A stretch of DNA of 64,000 nucleotides from an uncultured Chlorobiaceae bacterium (GCA_964484465.1 CAZAFL010000003.1:11731-75730), one strand, 5' to 3'; positions 549 to 35,490 are shown, numbered from the stretch's first letter. Numbers and translations: made by a program. The notes: generated from the sequence alone by a model not told the origin.

Positions 549-570
549 ATTCTGCAACACGCTAAAATTA

Positions 571-606
571 AAAAGCCGGCTCTCCTTTTGGGAACCGGCT
601 TTTTTG
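571..606. terminator. Putative bidirectional intrinsic terminator between convergent genes
   Basis: AAAAGCCGG...CCGGCTTTTTT: a short GC stem flanked by an A-run on one side and a T-run on the other. Confidence 0.4.
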
Positions 607-623
607 TATATCCCGGACTCCTT

Positions 624-3600
624 TTACTTAATCAACAACATTTTCTTCACACTCGTAAACGGTGTTCCGGACAGGTTTCCGTCTTCGTCTGTTACGGGCT
701 GGGCAACGAGTCTGTAGAAATACACTCCTGAAGAGAGATTTCCCGCATCAAATGCAATTTCCGTCCACCCTTCCTCCATCATTTCATGATCCTTTAACGT
801 TGCAACTTCCTGCCCCAACAAGTTATACACTTTCATGGTAATGATTGCCGGATTCGGTAGTTCAAACCGTATCTTCGTAGAAGGATTAAACGGATTCGGA
901 TAATTCTGATGCAGCATGTAGCTCACCGGCGTCATATCACCGACCACCTCCGGTGCGATATGATTCACTGGAGCAATACCGGGCGTCGGATGCAGGAATG
1001 GAACATCAATCAGGCGCCGTACCCCGGTTAAGCTCGTTTTTGCCGCGAACGAGTTCGTATCGATGACATTGCTGCTAAATGCAGAGTCGATACTTCGGAT
1101 AACATCGTACACTTCTGCGGGTGTTAGTGTGTCCCCTCCTTTTGTCGTATCGAGCAGGCACGAGATAACAAGGTCTGCTTTGCTGATAATTGTGTCGATT
1201 GTTTGTCCGTTGAGTAAATTCCCAGGCTGCGAGTTATCGTTGAACGTCAGCTCACCCAAACCATTCGGAAATTTGTTAAAGGCGCTTGCCGCGACATTCA
1301 ATTTCAACGCTGTGAGTTCGCCAAGAAGTTTGTTATTATGCTTGTCAGGGGACAGGCCTTCCTGTTGACGGTCTATCAAATGACCATTCCCGCTAACGCC
1401 GTTGTAGAAATCCAAGCATCTTGGGTCAAGTCCGTGGTATCGCACTCCAAAGGAAGAGACCTTCACCAGAGTTTTCATAACATCGGCGTATTTCTTATGG
1501 ATCACCGAATGTGCGCCATTGATTCCCTGCGGTACACCGACGATCATACCTGTCGGGAAGGCAACGCCCAGACCCTGACCAAATCCTTTCGGGAAAAGCT
1601 CCTCACCCACATTGTGGAGGTTTGGTAATGGCAGGCGAGGGGCATTCAATTTATAGCCGGTGTCTGGAATACGGACAGTTATTGTCTTTGTCCCAACCGT
1701 CCAAGCGACGGAGGTTCTTAGTTTCATACCTTTCGCACCAATACCCTCGACCTGAAATGTATCGCCGCTATCAATTGCAGCAGTGTACTGAACCGAACTC
1801 TGGCCTGTCCAGGAGAGAAGGGTATCTGCTTTTGCCTTGCCCGTGCTCAATCTTGCATCTGTCAACATCGAGAATTTAAGGGTGAAACCCTGTGAATTCT
1901 TCGGCGCGACGATGTTGAACTTAAACTCCACCTTATTGGCTTTTCGTCGAACAGCTTTGCGCTTAAGGCTCTGGTCCAAAGCGTTTGCCCAGTCTTCGTA
2001 CTTGCCTGTGCGGTACATCTGACCGAACGCCGGTGCTGCATTGATGAAATCAAGTGTTTTATTTTGTCCATCCGTGACAAGCACATTCCAGGAATTCATT
2101 GATGTATAGGTCGGTCCGGGGTCCATTATACCAAGATGGACCCATCCACTGCTGTCAGCCTCGACGCCAAAATACAGCCCATCTATAAGTCCCGGCACAG
2201 TGAGTGAATCGCCGTCATTACTCGCGACGAGAGGACCGTCAGCAGCTGATTTGTGAAGTTCAAGATGCCAGCTCTTTAGTGTCCTATCGCCGGTCGTGGT
2301 AAAATCTCCATCATTGTCGACAAACTTCCTGACAGTTATTGAATTGGGATGAAAGTTGCCAAAGTTGAATCCGGAATCCAGCACTGCCGCACCGACAGTT
2401 ACGATGTATGCACGAGGACCGGCGCCCGGTCCGAACGTTGACAATGTTACTCCAGGATCACCTATTCTTGGAACTGTTTGTATCCATCCAACCTGTAAGC
2501 TTTCTTCGACGGTATATGTATCGGCGGCGATGCCGGTGAACGAATAATGTCCGCCTCCGCTTGTCACAGTTCTCGCCTGCAGAATACCGCCTTTGTAGAG
2601 CTTGATAACCCATCCGTCGATCGCGTTATTTCCGGTAACCAAGCTGTCGTTTTCCACATCATTATATTTCGTTCCGCTAATGACATACTGGAAATTCCCG
2701 AAATCGTTGCCGGTGGAATTCTGACCGGATGAAAGTGGAATATTGTATGATGCGGGGCTAGTGGTTTGCGTCCATCCGGTTTGCTGCGTTTCACTCACGG
2801 TATAAATTCCCGCAGGTAAGCTGGTAAAGGAATACTGGCCATTAATGTCGGTTTGCGTCGTACCGTTTACAGTTCCAGTCAATTGAATCGTCCATCCCTG
2901 CAATACCGGTTCACTATTATTGACGCCATTTGCATTCAGGTCGTTAAACTTCAAACCTGAAATTGAAGCAGTGCCAGGAGCAATTCCTGTCCCGATCGCT
3001 CTGATGAGCCATGCGGAATAGGCCGGTTTCCAGTTCAGGGTATTGCCGGCATCGCCGGAATAGAGGCTGCGGCTCTGGTCCCCGGAAAAATCCGCACCCT
3101 GAGGATATGGTAAACCTGTGTACGTTATACTTACCCAGAAATCACTCCCATTATACATAGAAGGAGCATTCACCAACGGCAGCGACATGTATTCTCCTGA
3201 AGAACTAGAGGCAACATAATCGCTTCCCCCAAGTTTCTCGCTATACAGAAGGGCACCGGGTGTATTGTTATCGGCACCCTTACCCCAAACACGAACGAGC
3301 AATGAATCACTGCTTCCCATATTATTGATAAAGGCATCAACTTGCGTTAACTGGAGAGTTTGTGCGGGAGTAAATCGAACCGCTGCTGTAAATGAAGAGG
3401 CATTTCCGAATCCGACGTCGCCTTTTGAAGGATTCGTATTACCATCGTCATACAGTAAAGAAACTATTCCTCCCGGATATACGCGGGAGTGTCCCGTGGT
3501 AGTATTATTTGCTCCGTTGCCGTCTCCGATGGCACTCACTGTCGCTGAAATATTATGAGACCCCAAAACACTCGTCGAGTAATGCAGTCTTGCGGACTGT

Positions 3601-6077
3601 GACTGCTGTGAATTCACCGGACCACCGGAATATGGCGTTTGTGATGATCCGGAGACATTCCAATTAATCGAATAAGAAACAGAGCTTTGTCCAAGGTTAC
3701 CGACCAGCACATCAACAGAATCATTATACACCGTTGTAGTTTTCGAAGAATGATTCAAAGGGATACTCACCTGATGAACCGCCGTTGTCGAGATAGCACC
3801 TTTACGTGTCCATCGTTCGAGGGCAATATTCCCTGTGCTTTTCATGTCTAACTGATCCGCCTGGAGCTCCGGTTGCTCATTCGATGGGAAGATGAATTTG
3901 GTTTTGGGACTGATAATAAGCGGCGGAACCGAAGGCGTCAATGACCCAAGAGACAGGTCTACGGGTAGAACATCATTCAAATACTGCAACATAACGTCGT
4001 CCACGCGGATGGTATTACCTGCTGCCGAATAATCATGGAAAGCTATATAATAGAGAGAGTCAGTATTTACGCTGAAATCCTGCTGAACATATTCAAAGGC
4101 TGTGTTGGTGTTAAAGGCTCTGCTGTTGATGATCTGAGACGAGCTAACAGGTGGGCTGAAACCGACAGTCACGTCTAAACTATCTATGCCTTGTGGGCTT
4201 GCATTAATGAATGTTCGATCCCACCAGCTCAATCGGTAAATCTTATTATGTTTAAGCGTAATAGGTCCAAAATAAAGCCAATCATTTGCCTTACCGCTTG
4301 CAATCGAGCCTGTTCCGTCTTTTGCCGAACCGGGAGTCGAGTGGACTACACTGACATCACGCAGCCACGTGAAATTTCCGTTCGAGTTTACTACCCCCCA
4401 GCATGGAGGTGGAAACGTAGTGGTAGTAAAATCCTGGAACATTAACGTTGCTCCTGGGGCTATTCCCTGAACGCCAAAGTCAATTTTATCCTGACTATTC
4501 CCAGGACTGACAGCAACGGTGTATGCTCCTAGACAAGATGGCAGCGAAAGTGGAATTGTCTGAACCCAGCCGGTTTCAAGACTTTCACTTACAGTGTAGG
4601 TGCCGGACGTCAGCGAGGTCATCGAATACATTCCGTTGACGTCTGTGTAAATGGAGTCGTTTGAAGGTCCGTACGCACGCACCCGCCAGCCCGACAAACC
4701 CGGCTCGCCAATATCCTTGACCCTGTTCCCATTGAGATCGTTAAACACCGTCCCATTTATGGAGTTACCCGGTAAGGGTGTTAAATATATATCCAGATTT
4801 TGGGTATTATTAAGAACAAAAGTTAGTGTTGTGTCCTTTGGAAAATGCTGAGCCGACCTGAGATGGACCGTAGGGGATAATGTCGGATCATCGGTAAAAT
4901 AATTCAATGCATAACTTCCGCTGACATTGAGAGAATCCAAATTTTCTGTCGTGGTTATTGTAGCCGAAAGCGGGGTGCTGTTAACTCCATCCCGCACTGT
5001 CCCCTGTATAGTCGTCGTTGAAGCTCCAACATAATGATAAATCATACCGGGCCAATTGCTCCCGAAGGAATTCGTGCTTCCGGCAAGCCAGACGTCATTC
5101 GGCGCAAGCGGGTTAAGTTTGAGATTCCATGAAACGAATCCGGAATATCCTCCTGAAAGATCGATCTTAATGCCATTCTGAAAATGCTGGTATGTCATTC
5201 CTCCATCTGTCGTCCGGTCGATTCCATAACCAGAGCTGGAGAACCTTCCGGTGTACAATGTTTCCGGATGCACTGGATCTATAACTAACGACCAAAGAGC
5301 TGTGTCTTTCAGAATTGCAGCGTAAAACCACGTACTTCCCCCGTCAGTTGTTTTAATTAATCCGCAATTAGTTTCAGGAGGATTATCGGAAAACACGTTC
5401 GCATACCCGATAAGAGGATGAACGGGGTTAAAAACGATTTTAGGGACTTCACTCGTGTGAGCGTTAAATACCTGAGTCCAGTGAACACCGGCGTCGTTGC
5501 TTTTTGATATCGTACCGCCTCCAGATCCCACAAGAATGACGTTCCCGCTGTCCGGTCTCACAACAACACCGCACAACCAATCTCCGGATGTGTATTGCGC
5601 TGTCCATGTTTCTCCCCTGTTTGTACTGCGATACACAGTTCCGTCGCCATAATTCCCTGCATACATCGTATCAGGATGTTGTTTATCGTAGTCGATACTC
5701 TCACCATCAATCCCGTAATTTGCAATGACCTGGTACCAGCTTTGCCCGCCGTTCACGGTTTTCCACATTCCGCCAAGATCACGGAGAATAAACATTGTAA
5801 GCGTATCGTTAGGATGGATGAAGATATTCCTCATTCCCCTGAATGGGCCGGGGACAGGAGTCAATTGAGTCCAGGTTTTTCCCTTATCATGTGAAACATT
5901 CAATACACCGGTTCGGTCCTCGGCGTAAATCGTATTCGGATTATAGGGATTGATTGCGACATTATAACCGACACTTTGAAAGCGCGCCCGCCAATAGGAA
6001 TTTTGTGCGATAAGGGATGTTGTGATCCCCAGGGAAAGAGTGACGAATAAACAAAAGAACGATAAAAATCGCTTCAT
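624..6077 (-). CDS. Very large secreted T9SS cargo protein with BNR/Asp-box repeats and SdrD/CnaB-like beta-sandwich repeats
   Basis: Signal peptide MKRFLSFFCLFVTLSLGITTSLIAQ. There are multiple SxDxGxTW-like motifs (HDKGKTWTQ, STNRGETWT, TTDGGSTWF), repeated GxxNDxNGNGxxDxGE modules, and a C-terminal ~80-aa T9SS type-A sorting domain (NYPNPFNPSTKIRF...SGVYFYRLVA). Start trimmed to Met20 of the ORF-track protein. Confidence 0.75.
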   Translation of the reverse strand: MKRFLSFFCLFVTLSLGITTSLIAQNSYWRARFQSVGYNVAINPYNPNTIYAEDRTGVLNVSHDKGKTWTQLTPVPGPFRGMRNIFIHPNDTLTMFILRDLGGMWKTVNGGQSWYQVIANYGIDGESIDYDKQHPDTMYAGNYGDGTVYRSTNRGETWTAQYTSGDWLCGVVVRPDSGNVILVGSGGGTISKSNDAGVHWTQVFNAHTSEVPKIVFNPVHPLIGYANVFSDNPPETNCGLIKTTDGGSTWFYAAILKDTALWSLVIDPVHPETLYTGRFSSSGYGIDRTTDGGMTYQHFQNGIKIDLSGGYSGFVSWNLKLNPLAPNDVWLAGSTNSFGSNWPGMIYHYVGASTTTIQGTVRDGVNSTPLSATITTTENLDSLNVSGSYALNYFTDDPTLSPTVHLRSAQHFPKDTTLTFVLNNTQNLDIYLTPLPGNSINGTVFNDLNGNRVKDIGEPGLSGWRVRAYGPSNDSIYTDVNGMYSMTSLTSGTYTVSESLETGWVQTIPLSLPSCLGAYTVAVSPGNSQDKIDFGVQGIAPGATLMFQDFTTTTFPPPCWGVVNSNGNFTWLRDVSVVHSTPGSAKDGTGSIASGKANDWLYFGPITLKHNKIYRLSWWDRTFINASPQGIDSLDVTVGFSPPVSSSQIINSRAFNTNTAFEYVQQDFSVNTDSLYYIAFHDYSAAGNTIRVDDVMLQYLNDVLPVDLSLGSLTPSVPPLIISPKTKFIFPSNEQPELQADQLDMKSTGNIALERWTRKGAISTTAVHQVSIPLNHSSKTTTVYNDSVDVLVGNLGQSSVSYSINWNVSGSSQTPYSGGPVNSQQSQSARLHYSTSVLGSHNISATVSAIGDGNGANNTTTGHSRVYPGGIVSLLYDDGNTNPSKGDVGFGNASSFTAAVRFTPAQTLQLTQVDAFINNMGSSDSLLVRVWGKGADNNTPGALLYSEKLGGSDYVASSSSGEYMSLPLVNAPSMYNGSDFWVSITYTGLPYPQGADFSGDQSRSLYSGDAGNTLNWKPAYSAWLIRAIGTGIAPGTASISGLKFNDLNANGVNNSEPVLQGWTIQLTGTVNGTTQTDINGQYSFTSLPAGIYTVSETQQTGWTQTTSPASYNIPLSSGQNSTGNDFGNFQYVISGTKYNDVENDSLVTGNNAIDGWVIKLYKGGILQARTVTSGGGHYSFTGIAADTYTVEESLQVGWIQTVPRIGDPGVTLSTFGPGAGPRAYIVTVGAAVLDSGFNFGNFHPNSITVRKFVDNDGDFTTTGDRTLKSWHLELHKSAADGPLVASNDGDSLTVPGLIDGLYFGVEADSSGWVHLGIMDPGPTYTSMNSWNVLVTDGQNKTLDFINAAPAFGQMYRTGKYEDWANALDQSLKRKAVRRKANKVEFKFNIVAPKNSQGFTLKFSMLTDARLSTGKAKADTLLSWTGQSSVQYTAAIDSGDTFQVEGIGAKGMKLRTSVAWTVGTKTITVRIPDTGYKLNAPRLPLPNLHNVGEELFPKGFGQGLGVAFPTGMIVGVPQGINGAHSVIHKKYADVMKTLVKVSSFGVRYHGLDPRCLDFYNGVSGNGHLIDRQQEGLSPDKHNNKLLGELTALKLNVAASAFNKFPNGLGELTFNDNSQPGNLLNGQTIDTIISKADLVISCLLDTTKGGDTLTPAEVYDVIRSIDSAFSSNVIDTNSFAAKTSLTGVRRLIDVPFLHPTPGIAPVNHIAPEVVGDMTPVSYMLHQNYPNPFNPSTKIRFELPNPAIITMKVYNLLGQEVATLKDHEMMEEGWTEIAFDAGNLSSGVYFYRLVAQPVTDEDGNLSGTPFTSVKKMLLIK

Positions 6078-29242: not shown

Positions 29243-29283
29243 AAATCTCGACTATTCCTTTTGTAGTTGAGATTTTTTTATTT
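29243..29283 (+). terminator. Intrinsic terminator at the end of the five-gene operon
   Basis: AATCTCGACT...AGTTGAGATT stem followed by TTTTTTTATTTT. Confidence 0.5.
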
Positions 29284-30339
29284 TCGACTATCCCAATCCG
29301 CTCTCTTGCTAAGTGCGGGGACGGCGTGCCCTGCACTTGTTACCATTCGTCGAAACGCTTCGACAACATCCCTGACGGGTAATTCCATCATACATTGATG
29401 CTCAATGGGACAGTGTAATAAATTACACACAAGGCAGGAAAGCTGTTCATTGCGTACCCACGAATGGAGATTGCCATAGGGCCCTTCCGGGAAGGTTGGA
29501 CCGTAAATACACAGTATGGGCACGTCAAAGGATGATGCGATATGCGTCGGTCCGGAATCATTCGCAATGATGGCTGTACATTGAGTCAACAAAGCGATAT
29601 TCCGGCTTAAGGATACGCGAGGGCCTAGTATCACTTTCGATTCGAGAGCTGTTGAAATTTCCCGTGCATCCTGTTCGTCTGTCGGACCCCACACAATAAG
29701 TCCCACAGCATTGAATTGCTCCACCAATGCCGATAGTATTTCCACAAATTTTACAGGCTCACACCGTTTTGAGGGCCACGAACCTGCCGGTAACACCCCA
29801 ATAATAAATCTATCTTTGAGATCATGTTCTTCAATAAATTTTCTTGCGAACTGCAGTTCATCCGCACTCAAAGAAAATTTCAGCCTTGGTGAATATGTTG
29901 GGGCGCCAAGAACGGGTAGTACCTGAAGGTTAACTTCAGCGCCGTGCAGTTGTTCCCGGCGGGCTTCACCCGTCATCGAATAAAGATATTTTCTCCATCC
30001 ATAATCCAAGCCGACACGGTACCGGGCGCCGCTGCAGAATGTGATAATTGCAGAGCGCGGGTTGCCGAACAGGTCTATCACAACATCATACTGCCGGCGG
30101 CGGACATTGAGGATAACACTGACAGGGTTTGTTTTATTTTTTTCTATTGCTATGATGGAATGAACGCGGGGGTCATGCGCAATAGCCTCCTGCCCGGCAC
30201 GTTCCACCAGATAATCAATTTCTGCATTCGGAAAATGCTGCCTCAAACTGTCGAGAACGATGGTCGAAAGAAAGACGTCACCAAGCCCGCCAAGTTTGAT
30301 GAGCAAAATCTTCCTGATTTCCTCTGCCTTTTCGATCAT
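29278..30339 (-). CDS. Family-9 glycosyltransferase (ADP-heptose:LPS heptosyltransferase-like)
   Basis: N-terminal ILLIKLGGLGDVFLSTIVLDSLRQHFPNAEIDYLV, typical of GT9 (WaaC/WaaF/RfaQ-like). Confidence 0.7.
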   Translation of the reverse strand: MIEKAEEIRKILLIKLGGLGDVFLSTIVLDSLRQHFPNAEIDYLVERAGQEAIAHDPRVHSIIAIEKNKTNPVSVILNVRRRQYDVVIDLFGNPRSAIITFCSGARYRVGLDYGWRKYLYSMTGEARREQLHGAEVNLQVLPVLGAPTYSPRLKFSLSADELQFARKFIEEHDLKDRFIIGVLPAGSWPSKRCEPVKFVEILSALVEQFNAVGLIVWGPTDEQDAREISTALESKVILGPRVSLSRNIALLTQCTAIIANDSGPTHIASSFDVPILCIYGPTFPEGPYGNLHSWVRNEQLSCLVCNLLHCPIEHQCMMELPVRDVVEAFRRMVTSAGHAVPALSKRADWDSRK

Positions 30340-31124
30340 CTCCTTTTACGAACCTTTCCTGTCCCCTCATGGATATGATCGAGCAGCATGAAATCATATT
30401 TGCCGTTGATTGAAGGATGTGACGGCATCTGCCGAAATCGTGACTTGCCGATGAATCGGCATTCTGTATAAAGAGGGCACTCACCGCAACGGGGACGGTC
30501 AGACCTGCAGATTTGTCTGCCGAAACGAATCAGATTCGTATGAAACGAATAAGATTTTTTTGCAGGAACGAGCTCCTTCATCCACTCATAGGTCTTTTCC
30601 GGCGTTTTACAATCCTGTGAAAGCCCAAGCCTTTCACAAATTCTGTGAACGTGCGTGTCAACAGGGAAAACATTTCTCCCGAGTGAGAATAATAGAACAC
30701 ATGCGACGGTCTTGGACCCGACTCCATCCAGAGAAAGCAGTATATCAGCGATTTCCACATCGGTTTTTGTCCTGAGAAAATTGAGGTCGAGTGTCCCGAA
30801 CCGCTGGTAAAGAGTTTTCAATATTCTTTTTATCCGTACACTTTTCTGATTTGCCATTCCACCCACCCTGATTGCTGTTGCAATTCTTCCCGTGGGAGCA
30901 GCGAGAACACCCGACCAGGCAGGGAACGTCTCTCTGAGTGAACAATACGCACGATGACTGTTTTTATCGTTCGTATTTTGTGAAAGGACGGTAGCGACAA
31001 GCATATCGAGCGGTTTTGCTTTTCGCTTTGGAGGAAGCGGAGTGCCCAAAAAGTGTTCCAGCTTTTTTATGACGCGTGAAGTCTTCTGTTTGCGCATCCT
31101 GAAGTCACGATCCATTGTTTTCAA
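30336..31124 (-). CDS. nth: Endonuclease III-family HhH-GPD DNA glycosylase with 4Fe-4S cluster loop
   Basis: HhH-GPD motif LLSLDGVGSKTVACVLLFSLG..FPVDTHVHR and C-x6-C-x2-C-x5-C (CRSDRPRCGECPLYTEC). 4-nt overlaps with both neighbouring genes. Confidence 0.7.
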   Translation of the reverse strand: MKTMDRDFRMRKQKTSRVIKKLEHFLGTPLPPKRKAKPLDMLVATVLSQNTNDKNSHRAYCSLRETFPAWSGVLAAPTGRIATAIRVGGMANQKSVRIKRILKTLYQRFGTLDLNFLRTKTDVEIADILLSLDGVGSKTVACVLLFSLGRNVFPVDTHVHRICERLGLSQDCKTPEKTYEWMKELVPAKKSYSFHTNLIRFGRQICRSDRPRCGECPLYTECRFIGKSRFRQMPSHPSINGKYDFMLLDHIHEGTGKVRKRR

Positions 31125-32527
31125 GCTTTAGCAGAAAAGTGCTCGAGCACTTCGAACGTCTCAGCGTCGTTTGTCGATTCGAAGAATACACGATGCATTC
31201 GTCTCACAACATCGTGGACTGCTGCGTCATCAACAAGAAAACTCAAATTTGAGGGAGTAGCACCAAACGATATCATTGAAACACCGATTCCCGCAATCGA
31301 TTCAAATACATTCCGGCTGACCTCGGGTGAATTCCGCATATCTGTCCCGACAACACTCACAATTCCCTTCCCTTCAATAAGTTCGACAACACTAATCTCT
31401 TCAAGTTCACGTTTGATCGACGGTATGTTGCCTGACTGTTCCAGGACAATAGATACATTATAATCCGACGTTACCGAGAGCGGACTGACGGCTCCGTATT
31501 TTGTGAGAATTCCGTAGATATGTTCCCAGAACGAATATTGGCTAAACCGTTTTTGCGGTACTGCATTGAGAATGACAACGTCTCGTTTAAATGCAATCGA
31601 TTTAACAATATTTCCTGTCGTCGCAGGATTTGCAGTGACAAGTGTACCGGAAAGGTTCGGCCGTTTCGAATTAAAGATATGGATAGGAATATTTTTCTCG
31701 ATCGCCGGCAACATCGTATTCGGGTGAAGTACCTTCGCGCCGAAAAATGAAAGTTCGAACGCCTCCCGGAATGAGAGCACTTTTACTTTTTTGGGGGAGG
31801 TTACGACGCGAGGATCCGCCGTCAGCACTCCGTCGACGTCCGTCCAGATCTGGACATCATCGACATGTAATCCGGCACCGATGACGGAGGCGGAATAGTC
31901 CGAACTCTCCCGACCCATCGTCGTCCTGACACCGGTCTGCGTTGCCCCGATAAATCCCTGTGTCACCGGTATCTTTCCCTCCTCCACAAGCGGCAGAACA
32001 AGCCTTTGCAATTGCTTTCTGACAATATCCATGATCGGCTTTGCCGAGTTATGGTGTTCATCTGTCACCATGAATTCCCTGGTATCGACCCATTCGGCAC
32101 TGATTCCCTGTTCCTGCAGGACCGCGGTCACGATGCGCGACGACAACAGTTCCCCGTAGCAGTAGAACGCATCCAGTGTGCGGGGAGTCAACTCGCGGAG
32201 GATGGAAACTCCCTTGATCAATTCCTCCAGTTCAGACAATGATCCTGCGATTGCCTTTCGCAGCGCCCCATGACGAAATTTGTCTTTGACAAGTTCATCC
32301 ACGATTGCAAAATGCCGGTCGAAGAGCTTTAGGAGTGTGTCTCGCGCCTCTCCCGGCTTACCCGCCGCCGCAAGCTTCCCCGCTCCCTCAAGATTGTTTG
32401 TCGCCTGCGCAATCGCTGAAATGACAAGAACGGGCTGCTGGGCGGATCGGGATTGCACGATGCGCGCAACATTCATCATTGCAGACGCATCCTGCGTCGA
32501 CGTCCCCCCAAATTTCATGACGATCAT
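31121..32527 (-). CDS. lysC: Aspartate kinase
   Basis: N-terminal MKFGGTS amino-acid-kinase signature and C-terminal ACT-like region. Start trimmed to MIVMKFGG. Confidence 0.75.
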   Translation of the reverse strand: MIVMKFGGTSTQDASAMMNVARIVQSRSAQQPVLVISAIAQATNNLEGAGKLAAAGKPGEARDTLLKLFDRHFAIVDELVKDKFRHGALRKAIAGSLSELEELIKGVSILRELTPRTLDAFYCYGELLSSRIVTAVLQEQGISAEWVDTREFMVTDEHHNSAKPIMDIVRKQLQRLVLPLVEEGKIPVTQGFIGATQTGVRTTMGRESSDYSASVIGAGLHVDDVQIWTDVDGVLTADPRVVTSPKKVKVLSFREAFELSFFGAKVLHPNTMLPAIEKNIPIHIFNSKRPNLSGTLVTANPATTGNIVKSIAFKRDVVILNAVPQKRFSQYSFWEHIYGILTKYGAVSPLSVTSDYNVSIVLEQSGNIPSIKRELEEISVVELIEGKGIVSVVGTDMRNSPEVSRNVFESIAGIGVSMISFGATPSNLSFLVDDAAVHDVVRRMHRVFFESTNDAETFEVLEHFSAKA

Positions 32528-32612
32528 ATACTCTTCCTCTTCCTCCAAAAATGATATTGATGCGAAAATATAACAAAGCCACTGTTGACTAGCAATTCCC
32601 AAAAACAAAAAT

Positions 32613-32637
32613 GCCTCTTATGAGAATCATAAGAGGC
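32613..32637 (-). terminator. Intrinsic terminator for the small ORF upstream of lysC
   Basis: Perfect 11-bp stem GCCTCTTATGA-gaa-TCATAAGAGGC, followed on the minus strand by ATTTTTGTTTTTGGG. Confidence 0.65.
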
Positions 32638-32665
32638 ACCATAGGAAATCCCGCAGAGAATTATC

Positions 32666-32800
32666 TCATCGAGAAGAATCCTCATGAAGAAATTTTTGTT
32701 TGCGCCGTTTGTTGATAATCACTACCAGATACACCAGCACAACCAAAATCACGACGCTGATAATGATGACATTTAATCCCAGAAATTCTACTTTTTCCAT
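32666..32800 (-). CDS. Unannotated 44-aa hydrophobic small protein (single TM plus basic tail); possible type-I-toxin-like or small membrane protein
   Basis: MEKVEFLGLNVIIISVVILVVLVYLVVIINKRRKQKFLHEDSSR. SD-like GAGAGGG 5 nt upstream. A near-consensus promoter sits about 100 nt upstream and a terminator lies just downstream. It is absent from the ORF track because it is short. Confidence 0.45.
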   Translation of the reverse strand: MEKVEFLGLNVIIISVVILVVLVYLVVIINKRRKQKFLHEDSSR

Positions 32801-32903
32801 GTGACCCTCTCTCTATATCGAAACCCCTTATCGCATGCTGCATCCATTGTACGAAACGGAAAGCGATTCGTTACATTTTATATTCCGGGAATTATTAAGA
32901 ATC

Positions 32904-32932
32904 TTTATACTAATTTAAATTCATATTTGCAA
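32904..32932 (-). promoter_or_regulatory. Sigma70-like promoter (TTGCAA-17 nt-TATAAA) driving the small ORF
   Basis: On the minus strand: TTGCAAatatgaatttaaattagTATAAA. Confidence 0.45.
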
Positions 32933-33071
32933 ACAAATTCCATCCGATGTGCATTGAATGCGAAATCAGCGGTATTACGCAAAAAATTTTCCCTCCAATA
33001 CTGTGACTATGGATCGATCAGGAACAACATGGCGAGACAAGAATCTCTCTCTTCCCGGATAACGCGGTAAA

Positions 33072-34436
33072 TCATCTGATAGAAGGATGTTTCTTGTAAC
33101 GGTCGATTTCCTGATAGAGCCGAGCATTTTCCAGCGCTACTGTCGCTGCTTCCGCAAAGGATTTGACAAGTAAGGCCTCTTCCTCAATAAATCCCGGGTC
33201 TCGGTTTCTTGACACGACGAGAACCCCGAAAAGGGCTCCCCGTCCCTTTAACGGAACGGCAATGAAATGTTCTTTTTCGGGGCGCATACCAGGAGGATAT
33301 CTTGACCGCGGGTCGTGGTGTGCATTGTTGACCATTACCATTTTTCCGGACTGTGCTGCCATGCCGATGATTCCTTCTCCCATTGGTAAGGGCAGTTTCG
33401 CCAGCTTTCTTGAGAAGACGGTTTGCTTCGACAGCGTGTGCGCAATCAGATTTTTCCGTTGCGGATCGTACGAATATATGCCGGCAAGGTCATGTTCCAC
33501 AAGTTTTTTAATTCCATTTGTTATCGCCTTAAATATCTGCGGGATATTCGCATTTTTGAGAACCAACAAGTTTACTTCCTCTAAGGTCTGAAGCCGTTGC
33601 GCTTTGCGTTGTATGTCCATGGTGAGCCGCTGCATCCGCTCATACGACCTGTGAAGCTCCTCAATATAGTGTATCTTTGAGTTCTGGCGGAGGGATATCA
33701 CAAAACGCCTCGTCGCACCGGACCGTGAGTGGAGTAAGTAAAGCGACAGGCTGACAACAACTTTGGATCCATCTCTGCGCCGCCAGCCAATGGTGTAGTT
33801 CCTCAACTTACCCTCCTTCGTAACTATCTTCAACCCTTTCCTGAGTTTCTCCGCATCAGCTTGATCCACCCACGGGTATGGAAGACTGGCTCCCACAATT
33901 TCGTCTTTTCGATAGCCAAGCAGTCTGCCGTGCGCTTCATTACACATGAGAATTTTGCCTTTGACGTCGGCTACAAAAATTGCATCTTCCATCGATTCAA
34001 TGACCGACTGCAGTTTTCCTTCAGACTCCCACACCCGTTGTTCGAGAAGCCTTCTATCCCGAAGATCATGACCGATTCCGATAGTACCTGCCGGCATTCC
34101 ACGTTCATCAAAAAAAACAAAAATTGTCGCGTCGGTGCAGAGGCTTGTACCGTCTTTTTTCCTTATCTCAATTTCACCTTCCCAGAAATCCTCCTCGTGA
34201 AGTGCTTTATAGATCCTCGCTGTATATTTTGAGCGGTTCCGGACATGATAGAGCAACGGAATCTTTTCACCGACAAGCTCTTTAACCTTATATCCGGTTT
34301 TCTCACACACTGACCGATTGGCAAACGATATCGTGCGCTCCCAGTCGGCAATGACAATAAGGTCGCGTGAATAGTTTGCAACCGCCCGAAGAAGATCGAA
34401 CTCGGCGATTGGAGTAGTAAGCTTTATTTTACTCAC
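33072..34436 (-). CDS. PAS-PAS-GAF sensor protein without a recognisable output domain
   Basis: Two PAS-like segments, a coiled-coil stretch, and a C-terminal GAF-like region (GEGIIGMAAQSGKMVMVNNAHHDPR..FIAVPLKGRGALFGVLVV). No kinase or HTH domain. Confidence 0.6.
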   Translation of the reverse strand: MSKIKLTTPIAEFDLLRAVANYSRDLIVIADWERTISFANRSVCEKTGYKVKELVGEKIPLLYHVRNRSKYTARIYKALHEEDFWEGEIEIRKKDGTSLCTDATIFVFFDERGMPAGTIGIGHDLRDRRLLEQRVWESEGKLQSVIESMEDAIFVADVKGKILMCNEAHGRLLGYRKDEIVGASLPYPWVDQADAEKLRKGLKIVTKEGKLRNYTIGWRRRDGSKVVVSLSLYLLHSRSGATRRFVISLRQNSKIHYIEELHRSYERMQRLTMDIQRKAQRLQTLEEVNLLVLKNANIPQIFKAITNGIKKLVEHDLAGIYSYDPQRKNLIAHTLSKQTVFSRKLAKLPLPMGEGIIGMAAQSGKMVMVNNAHHDPRSRYPPGMRPEKEHFIAVPLKGRGALFGVLVVSRNRDPGFIEEEALLVKSFAEAATVALENARLYQEIDRYKKHPSIR

Positions 34437-34569
34437 AGAAGTATTTAGCGGCTAGTATATATCGAAGGAACCCACGACAATAAAATATAACCATGGTAGT
34501 TGCAGGAAACACCGTCTCACTCTCCGATTTCTGAATTCGGGGAGCATAATATGCCTCTCATTACATTTC

Positions 34570-34872
34570 TTATTTTTTCTTACACTCTTTTCCCGTTGTC
34601 CCGGCAAGCGCCTCTTTCTTATGTGTGATCTGGGTCCCTATCGGCGCCTTTTCATAATTTATTGGGATCCAATTTTTCCATTGCTCGGGGACGTCTGCCT
34701 CGGCAAAAATCGCTTCCACCGGACATTCCGGGATGCAGGCGCCGCAATCGATGCATTCATCGGGATGGATATACAACATACGGTCATCTTCATAAAAACA
34801 ATCGACCGGACAGACCTCCACGCAATCGGTGAATTTACAATCAAAGCAAGGTTCACAGACAATATATGCCAT
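34570..34872 (-). CDS. 7Fe-type (Azotobacter-type) ferredoxin
   Basis: [25 protein letters not shown]...[16 protein letters not shown] (3Fe-4S plus 4Fe-4S cysteine pattern). Confidence 0.75.
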
Positions 34873-34973
34873 ATAATCCTCTCAAGACAGGGATAGCTAC
34901 AGTGTGGGATAAATATATGTAATGACTTATTTTAATATTGTCAAGTAATGAGGTCAAAAACAGTCCTGCAGGG

Positions 34974-35318
34974 CTATTTTTCACCTAATTCGTCAAGAAA
35001 CGCCACTGCACGTCGAAGATGCGGAATTACAATGGAACCTCCAACTGTTAAAGCAACGCTGAAAATATCAAACATCTCTTCATTCGTCACCCCTTCATTC
35101 TTGCATTGAATAATATGATAAGAAATACAATCATCACAACGAAGCACCATAGACGCCACAAGTCCGAGCATTTCCTTCGTGCGCGTGTCAAGTTTACCTG
35201 ACTCGTAAGTTAACGTATCGACACCAAAGAACCGCTTGATCGCACGATGATTAGCGTCAAGAATTCTCTTATTCATTTTTGAACGGAAGGATTGAAATTC
35301 TTGTACACGCTTACCCAT
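34974..35318 (-). CDS. Carboxymuconolactone decarboxylase (AhpD-like) family protein
   Basis: CMD-family core with CDDCISYHI (CxxC...H), 114 aa. Confidence 0.6.
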   Translation of the reverse strand: MGKRVQEFQSFRSKMNKRILDANHRAIKRFFGVDTLTYESGKLDTRTKEMLGLVASMVLRCDDCISYHIIQCKNEGVTNEEMFDIFSVALTVGGSIVIPHLRRAVAFLDELGEK

Positions 35319-35417: not shown

Positions 35418-35490
35418 TGGAGCTGAAGGGGATCGAACCCTCGACCTCGTGAATGCCATTCACGCGCTCTCCCAGCTGAGCTACAGCCCC
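35418..35490 (-). tRNA. tRNA-Ala (anticodon GGC)
   Basis: Minus-strand cloverleaf GGGGCTGTAGCTCAGCTGGGAGAGCGCGTGAATGGCATTCACGAGGTCGAGGGTTCGATCCCCTTCAGCTCCA. Anticodon loop is AUGGCAU and the G3:U70 alanine identity pair is present. CCA is not encoded. The overlapping ORF 35311..35607 is a translation artefact. Confidence 0.85.

Follow-up and report, generated by a model that had tools for sequence, protein, structure and literature searches.

Within a 64,000-nt stretch of DNA from an uncultured Chlorobiaceae bacterium (GCA_964484465.1 CAZAFL010000003.1:11731-75730; the whole stretch is referred to as the window), we analysed the interval between lysC, which encodes aspartate kinase, and an upstream gene encoding a PAS-PAS-GAF sensor. 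A 44-codon open reading frame (ORF) lies in this interval on the minus strand, and judging from its sequence and that of its homologues it is a real protein gene for a predicted tiny single-helix membrane protein. A first-pass annotation had proposed an unannotated gene for a 44-aa hydrophobic peptide at this place, and the frame is exactly as quoted there and is conserved in homologues. The following features were assigned to the small gene:

32666..32800 (-), small ORF, 44 aa plus stop, with the ATG start at 32800 and a TGA stop (from homologues, codon statistics and AlphaFold2 (AF2))
32811..32805 (-), Shine-Dalgarno (SD) sequence GAGAGGG, followed by 4 nt (tcac) and the ATG
32801..32897 (-), putative 5′ untranslated region (5′ UTR) of about 97 nt, ending in GAGAGGG, unstructured by folding
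32904..32932 (-), putative promoter-like element: TTGCAA at 32932..32927, 17 nt, TATAAA at 32909..32904 (direct reading and regular expression)
32600..32640 (-), intrinsic terminator of the small gene: hairpin 32640..32610 and T-run 32609..32600 (folding)

The small gene, its signals and its homologues

Translation of the frame from 32800 to 32666 on the minus strand gives MEKVEFLGLNVIIISVVILVVLVYLVVIINKRRKQKFLHEDSSR, identical to the peptide reported previously. Because an in-frame stop lies 4 codons 5′ of the ATG, the ATG at 32800 is the sole usable start. The product consists of a short acidic N-terminus, a transmembrane (TM) segment at approximately residues 9-30, the basic cluster KRRKQK, a conserved KFLH motif and a variable hydrophilic tail. 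The hydrophobic core and the basic cluster are directly readable in the peptide, and AF2 predicts one continuous helix from residue 2 to 42 (pLDDT 83), so that the proposed architecture of one TM helix followed by a KRRKQK tail holds. The gene occurs once within the 64-kb window. Because the exact peptide is absent from a collection of 15 billion proteins in which the window's LysC is present, the gene caller must have skipped it, in agreement with the earlier remark that the ORF track had missed it.

An initial protein search returned a single homologue (P0001; 47 aa, 66% identical, E = 4.3e-9), which comes from a 714-bp contig with the C-terminus of a GAF protein, the small ORF and lysC in the same order as in the window and which gives independent support for family membership. 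A direct scan of species genomes with the peptide pattern (tblastn) yielded no homologue. We retrieved 80 lysC loci and scanned their upstream regions for ORFs; in three metagenome-assembled genomes (MAGs; L002, L004 and L005) a homologous hydrophobic ORF lies immediately 5′ of lysC. A profile search contributed 5 further proteins and a metagenome scan 25 further loci, and in total approximately 40 homologous ORFs were found in metagenomes and MAGs. An exhaustive hidden Markov model search of 1.84 billion representatives identified 55 clusters (50% identity) at E ≤ 1e-3, all 42-91 aa long.

In an alignment of 44 sequences, N10 and H39 are invariant, and F6, Y24, R32 and L38 are conserved in at least 90%. 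The family consensus is M-x3-E-F-L-G-L-N-[IV]-x-I-V-G-x8-Y-L-I-x-L-I-[NRK]-K-R-[RW]-K-x-[KG]-F-L-H, followed by a variable tail. Given the predicted orientation in the membrane, the conserved face runs from the polar Asn, at the helix end that faces outward, through Gly15, Tyr24 within the inner half and Arg32 to the cytoplasmic F-L-H. The window peptide falls within the 42-91 aa range, has a single TM segment and carries the equivalents of N10, Y24, R32 and F37-L38-H39 ('N-x13-Y-x7-R-x4-FLH'). It scores 77.5 bits (E = 4e-22) with all conserved residues present against the A4 profile, which includes the window peptide and is not independent of it.

The comparison of 31 distinct coding sequences indicates that the amino acid sequence is what has been kept. 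The ATG of the small ORF aligns with the start of all homologues, the mean proportion of synonymous differences (pS) is 0.79 and hence saturated, the proportion of nonsynonymous differences (pN) to the window peptide is 0.22-0.38 within the window's subfamily, and the median dN/dS is 0.26 among pairs with unsaturated pS. Pairwise nucleotide identity at codon positions 1, 2 and 3 is 0.60, 0.79 and 0.375, respectively. The remaining five frames contain stops in 19-31 of the 31 loci, and the DNA flanking the small ORF is unalignable among relatives. Because the start is aligned, synonymous sites are saturated against a low pN, the identities follow codon position and the flanks are unalignable, we conclude that selection acts on the peptide. 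This is the opposite of a locus at which only the promoter and terminator are kept, the outcome that the first-pass annotation had listed as speaking against its gene.

Searches of Pfam, NCBIfam, PHROG, PADLOC and PDB sequences with the peptide and the family matched no family, and the library searches gave merely sub-threshold, composition-driven TM matches (Stevor, ErbB TM, LPXTG/CTERM anchors, holin, CcmD_alt and PspB). Homologues that gene callers did call are labelled 'hypothetical protein', for example RCK75163.1 from an Ignavibacteriae MAG. Judged by these matches, the family appears uncharacterised and, as far as seen, confined to Ignavibacteriota/Chlorobi-like Bacteroidota. The best LysC matches to the window, 53-61% identical, come from Chlorobi, Ignavibacteriales and Bacteroidota MAGs and metagenomes.

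The expression signals claimed for the gene are largely present. The element TTGCAA-17 nt-TATAAA was found as described, with TATAAA 103 nt before the ATG (about 100 nt had been stated), and is a plausible promoter of the small gene in the window by its motif; a consensus scanner omits it because its rule requires a T at position 6 of the −10 element, where there is an A. The GAGAGGG motif is likewise in place, and its distance to the ATG is 4 nt rather than the 5 nt given. The 5′ UTR together with the start region folds with z = +1.26, 183 of 200 shuffles folding equally well or better. The reported perfect 11-bp hairpin with a U-run right after the ORF is the core, with 11 perfect Watson-Crick pairs, of a stem of 13-14 bp in full, which has a loop of 3 nt, is followed by TTTTGTTTTTG and begins 25 nt past the stop codon; in an 81-nt context its fold reaches −29.9 kcal/mol (z = −4.6), and 0 of 200 shuffles were equally stable. 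Of 29 relatives, 14 have an analogous hairpin with a T-run behind the small ORF, always 23-39 nt past the stop, and in about 11 of these it is convincing. The counts of promoter-like and terminator-like elements in the 1-kb region are near shuffle expectation, so it is conservation that lifts the locus beyond chance, rather than the promoter and terminator signals themselves. Among relatives, the gene upstream of the small gene in L103 is divergent, so the small gene there must own a promoter, and in the L004 clade the small gene is preceded, at a distance of 31 nt, by a conserved TTGTAG-17-TATAAT.

Genomic neighbourhood and the lysC promoter

The genes on either side of the small gene and the promoter of lysC were assigned as follows:

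31121..32526 (-), lysC, aspartate kinase with AA_kinase and ACT domains (Pfam; N-terminus conserved in relatives)
32567..32595 (-), lysC's own promoter, TTGCTA, 17 nt, (TG)TTATATT, 40 nt upstream of the lysC ATG
33072..34436 (-), PAS-PAS-GAF sensor, cytoplasmic, with no output or TM domain (Pfam)

The true start of lysC is the ATG at 32526 (MIVMKFGGTS, 468 aa), as given by the N-terminus that is kept in relatives. The mechanically called lysC ORF (TTG at 32608, 495 aa) is too long at its 5′ end: it would run over the tail of the small gene's terminator and over the lysC promoter. The PAS-GAF gene stops at 33072, and the gap to the lysC ATG is 545 nt; the 463 bp given in the first-pass annotation holds to the mechanical TTG at 32608 and not to the real start. 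The terminator ends about 75-85 nt before lysC, which agrees with the earlier figure of about 85 nt.

Because the lysC promoter follows the terminator of the small gene and precedes the lysC start, lysC in the window is independent of transcription through the small gene. A strict TTGNNN-17-TATATT, 25-43 nt before the lysC ATG, is present in 22 of 29 distinct intergenic regions, and it also precedes lysC in L006 and L010, both of which lack the small ORF. In several loci, the T-run of the terminator continues straight into the −35 element of lysC (TTTTTCTTGCTA). The strict motif has 9 matches in the 64-kb window, one of them just upstream of a tRNA (35418..35490); its further positions are 35584 (-), 18694 (-), 17971 (-), 46804 (-), 46825 (+), 61220 (-), 61272 (+) and 63640 (-). 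From these occurrences, it looks like the standard promoter of the window's lineage.

In 7 of the 29 intergenic regions of relatives, no such lysC promoter was found. Two of the loci (L090, 4148..4222; L108, 107..181) have a 75-nt spacer with a strong terminator-like hairpin and a T-run, which leave about 20 nt up to the lysC ATG. Because these two spacers contain no recognisable promoter, lysC there seems to need read-through or co-transcription, and one or the other probably takes place in some relatives. For the window, the proposal that the terminator modulates read-through into lysC was not borne out, given that the lysC promoter follows the terminator and that no antiterminator pairing exceeds shuffles. 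In two Ignavibacteria-like MAGs without the small ORF (L008, approximately 4880..5000; L009, approximately 1960..2079), a similar leader lies just before lysC and ends in the hairpin CCCGTCTC(T/C)GG...CC(A/G)GAGACGGG followed by TTTGTCATT. The shared element matches nothing in Rfam and may be either a hitherto undescribed lysC leader or a terminator belonging to the upstream gene.

In the window's clade, the small gene belongs to a block with the order CMD, (ferredoxin), (PAS-PAS-GAF), small gene, lysC, (nth) and heptosyltransferase, in which the bracketed genes are lineage-dependent. In the window, the block of CMD, ferredoxin, PAS-PAS-GAF, small gene, lysC, endonuclease III and heptosyltransferase spans 29278..35318 (-), and it is also found in L088, L090 and L093. 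The ferredoxin is about 90% and CMD about 80% identical across relatives with LysC at 50-60%. The PAS-PAS-GAF gene lies directly upstream of the small gene in about 18 related loci, often co-oriented with it and just 10-45 nt away, and its product is conserved at 41-66% identity across related loci; it is absent from L002, L083, L096, L098, L099, L102 and L103-L105. Other upstream neighbours are CMD (6 loci), a divergent VIT1 gene (L103) and two response regulators (L004 clade).

On the other side, lysC starts 75-210 nt 3′ of the small ORF in nearly all of the approximately 30 informative loci. In one exception (L086), a protein with an M1-peptidase domain follows the small gene. In another (L109, at 1623..1742), a short contig ends downstream of the small ORF with the lysC N-terminus in inverted orientation, for which a rearrangement or an assembly artefact is possible. 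In relatives that are slightly further removed (L003, L006-L081), no such ORF occurs at the lysC locus.

Distant members with the same motif were found in three other arrangements. In the order SpoU(/PALP), small gene, DsbD, two members (L111, 5001..5189; L112, 5001..5150) lie between a gene for a SpoU methylase or PALP enzyme and dsbD. In a second arrangement, an unknown gene precedes the small gene and a receiver-less sigma-54 activator follows; the long-tailed member in L113 (347..538; ..LTRKRFxxGFLHR..LLQR..LK.FG) overlaps the preceding gene by 4 nt, and the sigma-54 activator (567..1553), which starts 28 nt after the microprotein, has AAA+ and HTH domains only and is receiver-less like PspF, an arrangement that looks operon-like. 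The third order is ThyX, small gene, PAS/GAF histidine kinase. Signalling proteins are among the neighbours in 4 of 5 context types. Because family members also occur in the dsbD, sigma-54 activator and histidine kinase arrangements, we regard the protein as probably trans-acting and not tied to lysC.

Candidate functions of the microprotein

On the evidence of sequence, the ORF at 32666..32800 (-) is probably translated and monocistronic and would encode an accessory microprotein of 44 aa that spans the inner membrane once; the gene has its own promoter-like element, SD sequence and terminator. Under the positive-inside rule the topology would be N-out/C-in, with the acidic N-terminus outside and the KRRKQK-FLH segment in the cytoplasm. 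By analogy with other bacterial small membrane proteins, the microprotein may act in trans as an accessory or regulatory subunit, docking onto a larger membrane or membrane-proximal protein through the helix face N10/G15/Y24 and the cytoplasmic R32...K36-F-L-H39; signalling proteins are the most frequent neighbours of the gene for this putative docking subunit. The terminator would end the small-gene transcript and insulate lysC, and lysC would be transcribed from the promoter of its own that follows after 15 nt. The adjacency of the small gene and lysC may be best explained by tight packing: because the T-run of the terminator abuts the −35 element of lysC, almost no neutral breakpoint would be left between them and the adjacency would persist, and co-transcription may add to this in some relatives.

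Escherichia coli MgrB, AcrZ, MgtS, KdpF and CydX are alike in having fewer than 50 aa, one TM helix and a short juxtamembrane motif, in often being missed by annotation and in being under selection for peptide sequence. Unlike them, the present protein comes from a different phylum, shares no sequence homology with them and has a motif, N...G...Y...R...FLH, that is unique to its family. The phrase 'small membrane regulatory protein' in the first-pass annotation is still the best generic description. Several observations weigh against our interpretation. The high identity at codon position 2 owes part of its value to composition, as hydrophobic codons are of the form NTN, the TTGCAA-17-TATAAA of the window is not conserved in relatives, whose upstream regions are unalignable, and the small ORF of most relatives lacks an SD sequence, low SD usage being normal for Bacteroidota. 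Because the small protein has no homology to any characterised protein in the libraries searched, the term 'accessory subunit' is an argument by analogy. In addition, the pairing of the small gene with lysC is the sole adjacency common to the window's clade and the L004 clade, and this adjacency, which we treat as incidental, could mean a functional link to aspartate kinase.

That link leads to the view that the microprotein is a functional partner of an adjacent gene product (LysC or the output-less PAS-PAS-GAF sensor), which it would tether to the membrane or modulate there, so that adjacency reflects co-function. It is consistent with the near-constant position of lysC 75-210 nt downstream, with the retention of this pair in the window and L004 clades while other neighbours differ, with the 7 intergenic regions that have no lysC promoter and thereby imply co-transcription, with the close PAS-PAS-GAF gene upstream (often 10-45 nt) in about 18 loci, and with the signalling neighbours in most context types. 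Members with the same motif exist without lysC nearby, however, the PAS-GAF gene is missing at the loci listed above, the lysC loci of L003 and L006-L081 do without the small ORF, and LysC is a soluble enzyme that is not known to have a partner in the membrane. On balance we regard such a partnership as unlikely, and its stricter form, a dedicated membrane-anchored partner of the aspartate-kinase locus that recruits or modulates LysC or anchors the PAS-PAS-GAF sensor, as somewhat less likely still. If it were true, selection would hold the small gene and lysC together across clades that share no other neighbours, the LysC version would link flux through the aspartate family (lysine/diaminopimelate) to envelope status, and either version would be the founding member of a new family of regulatory microproteins. 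We give the least credence to the explanation that the microprotein serves an envelope system as a divergent accessory protein of the CcmD (or PspB) kind. TIGR04391 (CcmD_alt_fam) gave sub-threshold matches to 12 of 44 family members, the best being P0080 with 21.8 bits near the cutoff of 24, and shares the small single-pass form with an aromatic, Tyr-containing helix followed by a basic cluster; two distant members adjoin dsbD, weak PspB matches occur, and one subfamily precedes the receiver-less sigma-54 activator. Yet all CcmD_alt and PspB scores are under the curated cutoffs, the matches extend over no more than the TM segment and basic cluster, where composition drives the score, no match of the window peptide to TIGR04391 appears even at E ≤ 1, and Pfam CcmD is not among the matched families. 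Across contexts the neighbours were lysC, PAS-GAF, CMD, response regulators, dsbD, a sigma-54 activator and a histidine kinase, with no ccmA-F and no ccm or psp genes in any context examined.

The first-pass annotation had also likened the peptide to type I toxins (Hok, Fst, TisB and Ldr), which depolarise the membrane and are silenced by an antisense RNA. The size of 44 aa, the one hydrophobic helix and the charged C-terminal tail fit this comparison, as do the stand-alone gene with its promoter-like element, 5′ UTR of about 100 nt and terminator, and the fact that annotation missed it. On the plus strand, a weak promoter-like site, TTGACT-16-AAAAAT (32585..32612), could drive antisense transcription, but it matches at 9 of 12 positions in a region whose promoter-like count is at shuffle expectation. 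A sequence search of the antisense strand for promoters of the form TTGNNN-16/18-TANNN[TA] was negative for the window and for 21 of 31 relatives, and no site is positionally conserved. Unlike the genes of these toxins, the small gene has an unstructured 5′ UTR rather than a fold that would sequester the ribosome-binding site, is single-copy in the window, stays at the same place within a housekeeping block in lineages whose LysC proteins are about 50% identical and is likely co-transcribed behind PAS-GAF in several loci. Its product is deeply conserved with invariant polar residues, which together with the cytoplasmic FLH motif suggest a specific partner over generic membrane damage, and neither PADLOC nor PHROG gave a match. 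The likeness to toxins is thus not borne out beyond size and architecture, and a toxin function seems quite improbable to us. Even more so does a role of the ORF as a lysC leader or attenuator, in which translation of an I/V/L- or K-rich upstream ORF would decide terminator formation as in thrL and ilvL. Like thrL, ilvL, ivbL and the leader of the Thermus lysine cluster, the locus has a short ORF, a strong terminator 25 nt later and an aspartate-family biosynthesis gene next, and an I/V/L-rich composition such as that of the small ORF resembles ilv leaders. The hairpins about 20 nt before the promoterless lysC of L090 and L108 also fit, as does a sub-threshold Rfam likeness to cis-regulators with two hairpins, namely to the trpB motif at 28.4 bits where the gathering score is 59. 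However, 22 of 29 loci, the window among them, have the lysC promoter 3′ of the terminator, and it is present even in L006 and L010 without the ORF; no antiterminator complementarity exceeded shuffles in 11 loci (RNAduplex, z −0.35 to +0.94), and the minimum-free-energy fold contains no alternative antiterminator pairing. K and R are exchanged in the basic cluster with no conserved run of Lys, Thr or Met codons, the entire peptide is conserved at the amino acid level beyond regulatory codons, its I/V/L richness coincides with the conserved TM helix, homologues precede unrelated genes, and the terminator is present in only about half of the loci. We therefore rejected the leader or attenuator, from whose known examples the small gene differs in its lysC promoter after the terminator, in lacking an antiterminator and regulatory codons, and in being conserved as a protein that also occurs away from lysC.

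A riboswitch or leader function of the region, which the first-pass annotation had named as evidence that would speak against a peptide gene, was not indicated by the Rfam, antiterminator or codon tests. At the gathering threshold, Rfam identified only a tRNA elsewhere in the whole window and no family reached threshold at the small-gene region; no lysine riboswitch or other Rfam cis-regulator matched in the window or in 13 related lysC loci. A permissive Rfam search of the region gave sub-threshold matches (trpB motif, PyrR, ylbH and others) that align to the generic hairpin-plus-terminator. A force-sensing arrest peptide (SecM/MifM-like) was dropped as a candidate, because 44-53 codons leave the TM segment inside the ribosome tunnel at termination and the residues after KFLH vary both in number and in sequence. 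In the literature, we found nothing specific on an aspartokinase leader peptide in Bacteroidetes or on small membrane proteins like the present one.

Significance of the family

With the accessory microprotein proposed here, a genome whose gene caller had skipped it gains a small membrane protein that is well supported and deeply conserved. The microprotein also gives shape to an uncharacterised family of about 55 clusters (50% identity) that share an invariant Asn and His and a cytoplasmic FLH and have no Pfam or NCBIfam model. Small single-pass membrane proteins that annotation has missed are a well-known kind, and members of the family are already public as hypothetical proteins. To our knowledge, small membrane proteins are under-annotated, and almost nothing is known of them outside Proteobacteria and Firmicutes. 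As far as sequence can tell, the locus reveals no new regulatory mechanism for lysC and nothing suggests a toxin. The annotation gains from a corrected lysC start at ATG 32526 and from the location of a conserved lysC promoter. For the microprotein itself, its recurrent place beside lysC and signalling genes offers a concrete starting point for finding its partner.

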